Positions 4,943 through 28,128 of a stretch of 64,000 nucleotides of DNA are shown one piece after another. The position numbers and the translations under genes were made by a program. The stretch's first letter is position 1. Every line of letters starts with the position of its first letter. The DNA is from a virus: IMG/VR virus record IMGVR_UViG_3300032073_000007, positions 47,273 through 111,272 of that record, one strand, 5' to 3'. The notes below the pieces were generated by a model. It saw only the letters and a list, made by a program, of their open reading frames with translations. It ran no database searches and was not told where the DNA came from.

Positions 4943-5580
4943 TTATCTAATCTTAATAATTTCTGTTTAAAATCTTTTGTTAATTTACCAACATATGGCA
5001 TTCTTTTAAAACTTACACCAGAAGACCTATTTTTGGCTTGTATACCTGTTCCAGAAGTAGAACTATCAAACCCTGTAGAACTAAATAAATATTGTCCCAA
5101 GTTAGTCAATCCCCCCTCTTCTATACTTCTAGCCCAGCTTTTGCCAGCCATCCAAGGTATTGGAGTTAATCCATATATTTCTTCAATGCTTGGAATAAAG
5201 AAGGTGATTTGATATTTTCCTGAATTATTTTTCCTTCTTACCTTAAATTTTATTTTTTCACTAAATATTTTAGATATAATCTGAGTTGGATTATCTCCTG
5301 AAGAAAAACCTATAAAGGAAAATAGGTTACCGTATCCCCCTAAAGTTCCACTGGTGTTAGATGCTCTAGGCCCAGCGTCAAGCTCTATTGTTATTGGATG
5401 AGCTTCAAATTCCTTAATTAACTCAGATTGTCTTTCTTGAATTTTGGGATCAATCAAGCCTCTGATGGCCATCGCCATGCTTTTATTATTAGGTGAATCT
5501 ACCGTTAGCTCTCTAAGTAATTCTTTTGCGTTGACGGTTACTACTGGGGTAGAGACCGACATAAAATCTCTTCCAGCCAT
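4939..5580 (-). CDS. Neck protein (putative)
   Basis: Position in head-tail module; translationally coupled overlaps. Confidence 0.4.
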   Translation of the reverse strand: MAGRDFMSVSTPVVTVNAKELLRELTVDSPNNKSMAMAIRGLIDPKIQERQSELIKEFEAHPITIELDAGPRASNTSGTLGGYGNLFSFIGFSSGDNPTQIISKIFSEKIKFKVRRKNNSGKYQITFFIPSIEEIYGLTPIPWMAGKSWARSIEEGGLTNLGQYLFSSTGFDSSTSGTGIQAKNRSSGVSFKRMPYVGKLTKDFKQKLLRLDK

Positions 5581-19667: not shown

Positions 19668-19682
19668 CCTGCCACTGTCATG

Positions 19683-19720
19683 GAGCCTCGTCACCCCAAC
19701 GGGTGGCGAGGTTTTTTCTT
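19683..19720 (+). terminator. Intrinsic terminator
   Basis: GCCTCGTCACCC-CAAC-GGGTGGCGAGGT plus T tract. Confidence 0.8.
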
Positions 19721-19748
19721 GTAAAAAAACAAATAAAAAGCTTGACAG

Positions 19749-19827
19749 CGTAACTCACTGATACTCAACGAGTTACGCGCGGCGGCCCGCCCCCGCCCCG
19801 TAACTCCTTGATAACCAACGACTTACG
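19749..19827 (+). repeat. 79-bp bipartite palindromic element, copy 1 (forward)
   Basis: CGTAACTCACTGATACTCAACGAGTTACG + CGCGGCGGCCCGCCCCCGCCC + CGTAACTCCTTGATAACCAACGACTTACG. Confidence 0.95.
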
Positions 19828-19975
19828 AAGATTCCTCATGTATCATACTTTCAGATCAACGCAAGCATTTAAATGAAAAAAATTAACCTGTCTGACAACT
19901 TAAAAAAAAATCATTTTAAAGGTAAAAAAAGCTTTTAATTCATACGGATCTGTGCTATACTTCTCCCAGCAAGAA

Positions 19976-20089
19976 AGCTCTATAGTTTAAAAAGTAAAAC
20001 ATTCTCCGCGACCGCTTCAACAATAAGTCACCGCAACCCCAATGGTTCGGGCGAGAAAGATAAAGGTGCAAGTCCTTTTAGAGCGACCA
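19976..20089 (+). ncRNA. tRNA-Pro(CGG)-like RNA with 39-nt insertion in the anticodon arm
   Basis: Acceptor GCTCTA/TAGAGC with GACCA end, D stem GTTT/AAAC, anticodon stem TTCTC/GAGAA, T arm AAAGG-TGCAAGT-CCTTT; own promoter (TATACT 19956-19961). Confidence 0.7.
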
Positions 20090-20151
20090 ATTTCCCTAAA
20101 AAAACAAAATAAAAGTTTGCACTATCTCAAAAACTAAAGTAGATTCTACTC

Positions 20152-20340
20152 ATGACAGAAAAAGAACAAATCGAACACCTCAAAGATCAAATCTTCAAAC
20201 TTCAAATGGTAATGAAGGGAGTTTCAGGCATCGCAGCAGCAAGGTCTTCATTCAAAGAGACTTCTGCCTTTAACAAGGAGACCTTCAAAAGAATCGAGAG
20301 CCAACTTGATGAAGCAGTCAAGGAAGTTCAGTTAGGGTAG
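20152..20340 (+). CDS. 62-aa helical early protein whose last codon and stop overlap the mini-tmRNA
   Basis: TTGCAC-17-TAGATT-6 nt-ATG. Confidence 0.75.
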   Translation: MTEKEQIEHLKDQIFKLQMVMKGVSGIAAARSSFKETSAFNKETFKRIESQLDEAVKEVQLG

Positions 20341-20399
20341 CAAGGGTTTCGACGGGACGCAAGTCGCGGATGGGGGTTCGACTCCCCCGCTATCCACCA
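20335..20399 (+). ncRNA. Mini-tmRNA: tRNA-like domain only, no tag reading frame
   Basis: GGGTAGC/GCTATCC acceptor with G3-U70, A discriminator, encoded CCA; stemless D loop AAGGGTTTCGAC; short helix capped by GCAA; GGAT; GGGGG-TTCGACT-CCCCC T arm. Confidence 0.85.
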
Positions 20400-20467
20400 A
20401 AAAAAAATCAAAATAAATACAAAAAAAGCTTTTTACTCACTCAAATCTCTGTTATAATTCTCTCGTT

Positions 20468-20803
20468 ATGAAAAACACCACTACCACTACCACCACCCGC
20501 TTCGATCACTCTCTCTATGGACTCAGTGATCAAGACCTCAAGAAAAAGCTCACCAATCGCGTTGTTATCTACTGGAACAGCGAAGAATCCTCCGTCAAGA
20601 ATGATGGTGTCCGTCAGTTCGTGGTCAAGTCAATCGACTACACTGGTCACGCCAAGGGTTCGGGTCGCCGTTACATCCAAGGGGAGTTCCAAGACCTCGA
20701 CGATGGAGGCAAGACCAAGTTCCGCACTCTCCACGTTGCGGGAATCGAAAAGGTGAAGGGTCGCGTGGCGACCGCTTACAAGCTAGCCAAATCAGTTTTT
20801 TAA
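20468..20803 (+). CDS. Stand-alone WYL-like domain protein (paralogue A)
   Basis: RQFVVKSI...GRRYI...DGGKTKFRTLHVAGIEKV; paralogue of 21930-22208. Confidence 0.5.
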   Translation: MKNTTTTTTTRFDHSLYGLSDQDLKKKLTNRVVIYWNSEESSVKNDGVRQFVVKSIDYTGHAKGSGRRYIQGEFQDLDDGGKTKFRTLHVAGIEKVKGRVATAYKLAKSVF

Positions 20804-20817
20804 GTGCATAGCGTGTT

Positions 20818-20854
20818 GCCCGTCAGTCTCTTCGGAGGCTGGCGGGTTTTTTTT
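20818..20854 (+). terminator. Intrinsic terminator
   Basis: GCCCGTCAGTCTC-TTCG-GAGGCTGGCGGGT plus T tract. Confidence 0.85.
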
Positions 20855-20883
20855 GCATTAAATTGTTTTTTGGCCTTGACAGC

Positions 20884-20962
20884 CGTAACTCCTTCATACT
20901 CAGTGAGTTACGCGCTGCGGCCAGCCCGCCCTGCGTAACTCCTTGATACTCAACGAGTTACG
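20884..20962 (+). repeat. 79-bp element, copy 2 (forward)
   Basis: 29+21+29 bp; core CGCTGCGGCCAGCCCGCCCTG. Confidence 0.95.
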
Positions 20963-21447: not shown

Positions 21448-21666
21448 ATGTATACGTTCAGCTACTACATCGTCGCCAGCACAGGAGTTTACACAGGAGT
21501 CGCGATGTCGCGTTCTCCCAAGAAGGCTTCTGAAGAAGCCTCGCGGATCGCTTGGGAAAATCTCTACGAGGGGGATGCCAAAGCTGAATACTGTTCGGGC
21601 ATCTCCGTGGAGGGGTGGACAGCGTGGCGAGGTCATAAAAAAATCGCGGAATACATGGACATCTAA
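21448..21666 (+). CDS. Small early protein; stop codon lies inside element copy 3
   Basis: TTGCCA-16-TACACT-6 nt-ATG. Confidence 0.65.
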   Translation: MYTFSYYIVASTGVYTGVAMSRSPKKASEEASRIAWENLYEGDAKAEYCSGISVEGWTAWRGHKKIAEYMDI

Positions 21667-21740
21667 CTCCTTGATAATCAGGGAGTTACGGGGCGGGGGT
21701 AGGCCGCAGCGCGTAACTCATTGATATACAACGAGTTACG
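21662..21740 (-). repeat. 79-bp element, copy 3 (reverse core)
   Basis: Core GGGCGGGGGTAGGCCGCAGCG is the reverse complement of the consensus core. Confidence 0.95.
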
Positions 21741-22743: not shown

Positions 22744-22816
<73 letters not shown>

Positions 22817-22895
22817 CCTAACTCCTTAATACTCAGGGACTTACGCGCTGCGGGCGGCCCCCGCCCCGTAAGTCGTTGATACTCAACGACTTACG
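22817..22895 (+). repeat. 79-bp element, copy 4 (forward), abutting the tRNA 3' end
   Basis: Core CGCTGCGGGCGGCCCCCGCCC. Confidence 0.95.
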
Positions 22896-23757: not shown

Positions 23758-23854
23758 CCCTGCCGCTACCATCACAGGCCCGCATTCCGAAAGGGGTGCG
23801 GGCTTTTGCTTGCAAAAATAAAATGTTTTTTTAGTTGACACGGTATTCAAGCCT

Positions 23855-23933
23855 CATAACTCGTTGAATATCAACGAGTTACGGGGCGGGGGCCGCCCGC
23901 GCAGCGTAACTGCTTGATACTCAAGGACTTACG
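23855..23933 (-). repeat. 79-bp element, copy 5 (reverse core)
   Basis: Core GGGCGGGGGCCGCCCGCGCAG; its reverse complement matches the copy 4 core at 18/21. Confidence 0.95.
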
Positions 23934-23992
23934 ACTGAATTTTAATTCTTTTTTAATTTGACAGTTTTTTTTCTTTGGGGTATATTTTTGCC

Positions 23993-28052: not shown

Positions 28053-28128
28053 TGGTAGCGGGAGTGGGATTCGAACCCACACTTTAGCGATTTTAAGTCG
28101 CTTGCCTCTGCCGTTGGGCTACCCCGCC
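28053..28128 (-). tRNA. tRNA-Leu(UAA), short variable loop
   Basis: GGCGGGG...AGCGA-CTTAAAA-TCGCT-AAAGT-GTGGG-TTCGAAT-CCCAC-TCCCGCT-ACCA. Confidence 0.9.

Follow-up and report, generated by a model that had tools for sequence, protein, structure and literature searches.

A conserved tRNA-shaped RNA gene of marine phages whose former anticodon is masked by a two-hairpin insert

Structure and conservation of the tRNA-shaped gene

The DNA analyzed here (the window) is a 64,000-nucleotide stretch of IMG/VR record IMGVR_UViG_3300032073_000007, part of the genome of an uncultured marine tailed phage that encodes a large terminase subunit, PhoH, a sigma-70-like protein, and two open reading frames (ORFs) of ~3,260 amino acids (aa), at 38% G+C; CheckV completeness of related contigs implies genomes of ~140 kb. 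At 19976-20089 on the plus strand lies a 114-nucleotide (nt) gene shaped like a tRNA, in which the strands of the anticodon stem are separated by 46 nt, so that the encoded RNA has no seven-nucleotide single-stranded anticodon loop. An earlier note, made from the letters alone, had described a tRNA-like gene with full arms and an encoded CCA at these coordinates, together with the TTCTC/GAGAA stem enclosing 46 nt, an A1-G72 mismatch, the T loop TGCAAGT, and a G72-A73-CCA end, and all of these coordinates and sequences proved correct. The parts of the gene are given below in tRNA numbering, where R1 denotes a covariance model built from homologs of the element.

19976-20089, plus strand: whole tRNA-shaped RNA gene, 114 nt; 41.6 bits with the Rfam tRNA model, 137 bits with R1
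19976, plus strand: A1, facing G72 (20085); unpaired across the family
19977-19982, plus strand: 5' strand of the acceptor stem, GCTCTA, pairing with TAGAGC at 20079-20084; six pairs, 100% paired
19985-20000, plus strand: D arm, GTTT-AAAAAGTA-AAAC; pair 12:23 covaries, and the equivalents of U8, A14, G19, and A21 are kept
20002-20006, plus strand: 5' strand of the anticodon stem, TTCTC; partner GAGAA at 20053-20057, 46 nt enclosed
20007-20030, plus strand: junction CGC, hairpin A, and junction A (20030); the variable part
20010-20012 and 20027-20029, plus strand: hairpin A, GAC/GTC around a loop at 20013-20026; the A:U pair at the stem base becomes G:C in 9 distinct sequences
20031-20050, plus strand: hairpin B, CCG-c-AACC [CCAAT] GGTT-CGG; seven pairs, 99.6% paired
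20051-20052, plus strand: junction GC (former positions 37-38); GC in 31, GT in 2, and a single G in 2 distinct sequences
20058-20078, plus strand: variable loop AGAT and T arm AAAGG-TGCAAGT-CCTTT; T54, C56, and A58 kept, position 55 is G
20085-20089, plus strand: G72, A73, and encoded CCA; CCA in 34 of 35 distinct sequences, CAA in one

Standard tools pass over this gene. Neither ARAGORN at default settings nor an Rfam gathering search of the window made a call at 19976-20089. With permissive filters, the Rfam tRNA model (RF00005, gathering cutoff 29 bits) matched 19976-20086 at 41.6 bits (E 2.7e-7), placing a 45-nt insertion in the anticodon loop and aligning an A in place of G18; the same model gives the phage's ordinary tRNAs 74.7 and 60.1 bits. 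When the 39 nt at 20007-20045 were deleted, ARAGORN at default called tRNA-Pro(CGG) with a clean 75-nt cloverleaf, a check that the earlier note had proposed. Default tRNA finders thus overlook genes of this kind, and viral metagenomes leave them unannotated. The folding z-score of the element is only -1.1, a modest value of the sort usual for tRNAs.

Homologs were gathered through terminase-linked loci, with three DNA patterns in IMG/VR, and with one pattern in JGI metagenomes. R1 identified 71 full-length copies, 35 of them distinct, at 119 to 142 bits, all on marine viral or metagenome contigs; one contig (L082) holds two diverged copies, one of each of the two anticodon types (CGG and CAG). 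No allele free of the insert was found in the 71 copies or in 80 related terminase loci. R1 found no match in three large relatives that lack the element (85- to 109-kb records), and blastn of 19700-20500 found none among 50,697 GenBank phage records. Among 185,579 bacterial species genomes, a pattern for the 5' half matched only once, in a Chitinophagaceae metagenome-assembled genome; this match is due to chance and does not fold as the element.

Pairing across the alignment is nearly complete: 98.7% of alignment cells are paired, compared with ~52 to 55% when partners are shifted by one column. Three pairs covary, one each in the D stem, hairpin A, and hairpin B; covariation in homologs was among the checks suggested in the earlier note.

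D stem, pair 12:23: UA in 25, CG in 14
Base of hairpin A: AU in 27, GC in 9
Middle pair of CCG/CGG in hairpin B: CG in 23, UA in 13

All three change on both sides, and no half-changed intermediates were seen; among full-length distinct copies, 23 carry CCG/CGG in hairpin B, 12 carry CUG/CAG, and none is mixed. C3:G70 is invariant in the family and a full anticodon stem is present, with the 27:43 pair mismatched in some relatives. The total insert is ~38 to 41 or 64 nt across variants. Variation is confined to hairpin A, which differs in both length and sequence, while the 3' half of the insert varies no more than the tRNA body does. All variants fold alike, as a cloverleaf frame whose anticodon stem opens into a three-way junction. 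We conclude that 19976-20089 is a real, conserved phage RNA gene, far beyond chance.

These data bear directly on the reading in which the locus encodes no functional RNA and is instead a tRNA pseudogene in decay, a cloverleaf arising by chance, or a site used at the DNA level (for example, as a target for recombination or integration). The silence of default tRNA finders, the modest z-score, and a truncated fragment on one contig would fit such a reading. However, every helix is maintained across the 35 distinct sequences, compensatory changes occur, and hairpin B is invariant; two diverged copies persist in one contig; and the promoter described below accompanies the gene. Because of this conservation and compensatory change, the random decay that a pseudogene would show in its homologs is refuted, and the reading as a whole is close to refuted, with very little probability left to it. 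The fragment itself (L147:4314-4421, plus strand) consists of the first ~39 nt of the element, nearly identical, fused to unrelated sequence on a contig that also holds a complete copy (43-156), and is probably a scar left by recombination.

The conserved hairpin B determines the state of the former anticodon. It has one bulged nucleotide and a 5-nt loop, and its 3' strand contains U33 followed by the former anticodon CGG (20048-20050), which pairs with the upstream CCG at 20031-20033. Pairing of the former U33-C34-G35-G36 strand locks the "anticodon" in a helix, and thermodynamic folding gives the three anticodon bases a pairing probability of ~0.95. The former anticodon is thus masked in a covarying helix. 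The earlier note had placed TTCGGGC correctly at 20046-20052 but took it for a canonical anticodon loop. Its suggestion that the anticodon is masked held, although by a different helix: the proposed CGCGACC/TGGTTCG pairing is broken in 4 of 9 sequences, with no compensation.

Promoter and genomic setting

Sequence upstream of the gene suggests that it is transcribed from a promoter of its own, as the earlier note had claimed.

19953-19961, plus strand: extended -10-like box TGcTATACT with a weak -35; spacing kept in homologs; putative promoter
19962-19975, plus strand: region from the -10 box to A1; its spacing suggests a start at ~19968 and a 5' leader of 8 to 9 nt, presumably cut by RNase P

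In homologs, the arrangement TTGnnn-17 nt-TATAAT/TATACT stands 14 to 15 nt upstream of the gene and accompanies it into different contexts, and the 5' leaders are similar (AGCAAGAA, AGCAACAAA, and CGTAAGAA). A simple two-hexamer promoter scan flagged nothing at 19953-19961, so the promoter assignment draws on consensus and on the conserved arrangement. Intrinsic terminator-like sites flank the gene at 19682-19715 and 20818-20847.

The gene belongs to an early-type island, also containing DUF932 and GP88 genes, in which cassettes are divided by a repeated element of ~80 bp. Copies of this intergenic repeat lie at 19749-19830, 20883-20962, 21664-21740, 22819-22895, and 23854-23934, on both strands; each has a G+C-rich spacer between two imperfect palindromes and delimits small cassettes of genes or RNAs. 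Cassette order is shuffled in related phages, an organization that recalls the mobile promoter stem-loop cassettes of T4-type phages. Small ORFs of the island were assigned no family in Pfam and PHROGs scans, and a search of the ESM Atlas with a 111-aa neighboring protein gave sub-threshold leads only, including WYL at 0.80.

Also in the island is a 65-nt mini-tmRNA (a transfer-messenger RNA reduced to its tRNA-like domain [TLD]) at 20335-20399 on the plus strand, which scores 43.9 bits with the Rfam tmRNA model (cutoff 47) with 312 model positions deleted and shows G3:U70, a T arm, and CCA. The earlier note had assigned the two RNAs to one module; they are indeed found on the same strand, ~0.25 to 2.7 kb apart and in either order, in 32 of 70 element loci. 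They are linked cassettes and not a fixed operon.

In almost all copies, a small ORF starts 14 to 138 nt after the CCA, an arrangement compatible with a tRNA-shaped processing signal, comparable to plant mitochondrial t-elements and "tRNA punctuation," at which cuts by RNase P and 3' trimming enzymes would make or stabilize the end of the mRNA for the downstream small gene and the RNA would have no function in trans. In about half of the loci, the ORF belongs to a family of 47 to 66 aa that begins 20 to 74 nt after the CCA, and in the window no terminator separates the RNA from the next gene. A contig from an oligo-dT marine RNA library covers the RNA and all but the last 11 nt of that next ORF. 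On the other hand, the downstream gene differs between copies, the window shows a TTTGCA...TAGATT box arrangement between the RNA and the next ORF, and the gene takes its own promoter into new contexts. An invariant hairpin B, a covarying locked anticodon, and a full D arm and elbow would moreover be needless for mere cutting, and we regard a processing signal as quite unlikely.

The proteins of the 47- to 66-aa family are charged and probably helical, with N termini of the form MNLSKESQEA... or MTATEEALAAM... (for example, L001:4200-4396, minus strand); the window lacks the family and has an unrelated 62-aa ORF at 20152-20340 instead. The oligo-dT contig matches 19928-20329 of the window exactly and ends 5 nt before the 5' end of the mini-tmRNA. 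Its extent is a hint of co-transcription and processing, although contig ends are not evidence of RNA ends.

Elsewhere in the window, 10-mers complementary or identical to the RNA gave 11 matches, compared with ~12 estimated by chance, and no primer-binding or target site emerged. Inspection by eye for other motifs covered a hammerhead-like core, a T-loop motif within hairpin B, pseudoknotting of the hairpin B loop with other loops, and a likeness to 5S rRNA loop C; none of these held.

Decoding, splicing, and a possible decoy role

The features that a decoding tRNA would be expected to keep are not conserved in this family. On an unchanged body, the anticodon triplet is CGG (Pro) in 23 and CAG (Leu) in 12 of the distinct sequences. 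Positions 72/73 are GA in 21, CG in 7, AG in 6, and AA in 1 of the 35; position 72 is G, A, or C but never T, and A1 is thus unpaired in all 35 variants. G35, G36, G72, and A73 are identity elements for prolyl-tRNA synthetase (ProRS) in Escherichia coli. The earlier note had drawn on them in arguing for a proline tRNA, and the set is present in the window copy, but the argument fails across the family, where 12 of the 35 distinct sequences have A at position 35 and 72/73 vary as above. At the elbow, G19, C56, T54, and A58 are canonical, while position 18 is A and position 55 is G. The L-shape seems to be selected, and the details of an elongator tRNA do not.

Codon usage in this phage group gives a similar picture. 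CCG makes up 10% of Pro codons and CUG 5% of Leu codons, which are the rarest Pro and Leu codons of the phage, whereas its ordinary tRNAs serve abundant codons (UUA, 41%; AUA, 33%; AGA, 49%). These ordinary tRNAs lie at 22744-22818 (plus strand) and 28053-28128 (minus strand) of the window and, in a relative, at L142:9188-9264 (minus strand); the types are CAU (Met, or Ile2 if lysidine modified), Leu(UAA), and, in the relative, Arg(UCU).

The main alternative to a nondecoding RNA is a tRNA-Pro(CGG) gene, with tRNA-Leu-like CAG alleles, that is interrupted 5' of the anticodon (32/33) by a short structured intron and whose anticodon stays paired until a protein endonuclease and a ligase excise the insert. 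Such a gene would be the marine-phage equivalent of the Lak phage tRNA introns discussed below. Several observations favor this view and weigh against the interpretation we prefer. Once 39 nt are taken out, a 5-bp stem closes a textbook 7-nt loop that contains U33 and G37, within the clean cloverleaf noted above, and the Rfam tRNA score of the uncut gene exceeds the cutoff. Pairing between intron and anticodon is normal in spliced pre-tRNAs, and covariation alone therefore leaves an intron possible; in addition, the sequences are closely related and mosaic, such that each covarying pair may have arisen only once and then spread by recombination. Related phages carry a sister type of gene that likewise yields tRNA-Arg(UCU) after deletion of 54 nt. 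Finally, short introns in phage tRNA genes have precedent (Devoto 2019, PMC6784885).

Other evidence argues against an intron. The insert is too small for self-splicing (~38 to 64 nt, compared with a group I core of roughly 200 nt or more containing P3-P8), and no Rfam intron family, group I included, matched at E <= 10. The predicted three-way junction lacks the bulge-helix-bulge of archaeal and eukaryal introns, in which a 4-bp helix is flanked by two 3-nt bulges, and the insert sits at 31/32 or 32/33 instead of the usual 37/38. The earlier note had suggested a search for an RNA ligase or endonuclease; on the phage side, RtcB, RNA_ligase, and tRNA_int_endo (PF01139, PF09414, and PF01974) were not found in four partial genomes with the element (records 32 to 79% complete), nor was RtcB in three relatives without it, and Pfam and PHROGs scans of 44 window ORFs revealed no RNA-processing enzyme; this counts as weak evidence. 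In two variants (5 copies) that lack one junction base, removal of the insert would leave a 6-nt loop. The lack of any intron-less form among the 71 copies, the switch of isotype on an unchanged body, the variation at 72/73, the rarity of the codons that would be read, and a G55 and unpaired 1:72 that are poor for an elongator tRNA all point the same way. The invariant 3' half of the insert also fits a functional surface better than a discarded spacer.

Weak evidence also comes from RNA-library contigs of three runs (two studies), which carry only the unspliced sequence, with zero differences and no joints; DNA carry-over is possible, and such contigs cannot show RNA ends, abundance, or rare forms, with uncovered parts of the region being uninformative. 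Taken together, we consider an interrupted tRNA-Pro gene unlikely, and its bolder form, in which the insert is a new class of short bacterial-virus tRNA intron that cages the anticodon in a conserved hairpin until protein machinery excises it, slightly less likely again. If spliced, the RNA would reveal a tRNA splicing route new to bacteria and their viruses; a caged intron would make it a switchable tRNA, hidden from anticodon-directed host nucleases while locked, and the sister tRNA-Arg(UCU)-like gene, with its similar insert, would be processed in the same way.

That second interrupted tRNA-shaped gene occurs in related phages and not in the window (L120:100-227, L127:3821-3949, L093:1118-1244, and L097:6461-6587, all minus strand; L094:5246-5372, plus strand). 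Its D and T loops are canonical, its "anticodon" stem has 9 bp, and its insert of ~54 nt forms two hairpins whose stems are conserved and whose loops vary among three variants. Under a relaxed threshold, ARAGORN calls it tRNA-Arg(UCU), which would serve a codon heavily used by these phages, and places an intron at position 34.

Overall, the RNA probably does not decode and is probably not a working tRNA-Pro. The earlier note had offered a spliced intron, a shielded tRNA, and a decoy as possible readings, and the balance favors a shielded, nondecoding form: on present evidence, we think it reasonably probable that the locus is a genuine phage gene for a stable, nondecoding tRNA mimic whose anticodon is locked in a two-hairpin insert. 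Descent from a tRNA-Pro-like gene is probable, because the RNA retains G72-A73 and G37 and its T arm is similar to that of phage tRNA-Pro.

For such a mimic, the following course can be proposed. Host tRNA enzymes would trim the transcript, with RNase P processing the 5' end and exonucleases the 3' end as far as the encoded CCA, and the RNA would accumulate with the insert retained, the unspliced molecule presumably being the mature form. The tRNA body may provide stability and access to a tRNA-recognizing factor, with hairpin B supplying specificity. The RNA could then titrate, block, or redirect a host (possibly phage) factor early in infection, for which a tRNA-directed defense or RNA-processing factor is a candidate type of target. 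Decoy action of this kind would parallel that of the adjoining mini-tmRNA, a proposed sponge for SmpB. The family is abundant in marine phages, and its one invariant hairpin is an obvious functional surface. If the RNA is a decoy, it would point to a host tRNA-binding factor that phages must neutralize early and would be a natural version of the engineered "tRNA scaffold" discussed below.

Comparison with known systems

The TLD-only mini-tmRNA, of the mycobacteriophage DS6A type, has been proposed to titrate SmpB (Hudson, Lau and Williams 2014, PMC4131195). Like the proposed mimic, it is a phage-encoded, nondecoding tRNA mimic with a CCA end, and in the window it shares the island and strand of the tRNA-shaped gene. 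The two differ in structure: the mini-tmRNA has G3:U70 and neither a D stem nor an anticodon arm, whereas the tRNA-shaped RNA combines C3:G70 with a complete D arm and carries two hairpins on its anticodon stem. The tmRNA model matches only 20335-20399 and not 19976-20089.

Engineered tRNA scaffold RNAs (the Ponchon and Dardel approach, e.g., PMC3753655) replace the anticodon loop with a structured RNA, and the chimera is processed and stabilized like a tRNA in bacteria. The design principle is shared, as an analogy of mechanism only; the scaffolds are man-made and have no evolutionary relationship to the marine RNA. No relevant report of a natural phage tRNA carrying a short structured insert emerged from literature searches on that subject.

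Closer to an intron are the short, "enigmatic" anticodon-loop introns in tRNA genes of Lak megaphages, which are non-self-splicing and highly conserved and whose mechanism of removal is unknown (Devoto et al. 2019, PMC6784885). Common to both cases is a short anticodon-loop insert that does not self-splice. Lak tRNAs, however, occur with and without the intron and have ordinary bodies, whereas the marine RNA has no insert-free allele, a noncanonical body (G55, unpaired 1:72), and an anticodon and identity positions that are not conserved. The Lak class has no formal definition, and the likeness is therefore a comparison only.

Among the small stable RNAs of T4, species 1 and 2 (rnaC and rnaD) are likewise encoded beside tRNA genes and have no known role, and the T arm of rnaC is canonical. 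In the folds made here, they show no full cloverleaf and no recognizable D arm or anticodon stem, and they have no sequence similarity to the marine RNA. R1, run on the T5 and T4 tRNA regions, detected weakly scoring ordinary tRNAs only, the best being the T5 tRNA-Pro at 23 bits.

The nearest parallel in architecture is provided by T5 RNA1 and RNA2 (AY543070, 30501-30644 and 32959-33083), which are annotated as "tRNA-like stable RNA with unknown functions." These RNAs are phage encoded, have an acceptor stem, D arm, and T arm, and in our own folds carry an anticodon arm enlarged by ~40 to 48 nt; ARAGORN reads them as tRNAs only if an "intron" beside the anticodon is allowed. Under relaxed settings, RNA1 is called tRNA-Leu(UAA) and RNA2 tRNA-Arg(CCG), with "introns" of 40 and 48 nt at positions 33 and 34, respectively, which puts them on the side of the anticodon where the marine insert also lies (in our locus record of T5, L159, they lie at 2502-2645 and 4960-5084, minus strand). 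They differ from the marine RNA in several respects. There is no sequence relationship, with no match to R1 and none to the Rfam tRNA model at E <= 0.01; the enlarged arm is a long irregular hairpin in T5 and a three-way junction in the marine RNA; and the T5 RNAs have canonical T loops and lie in a large tRNA cluster with no adjoining mini-tmRNA. The marine gene thus founds a new family within a long-known class of phage tRNA-like RNAs. Stable RNAs of this class have been known since T4 and T5 and were never explained, and the marine family offers a clean case with a well-defined structure.

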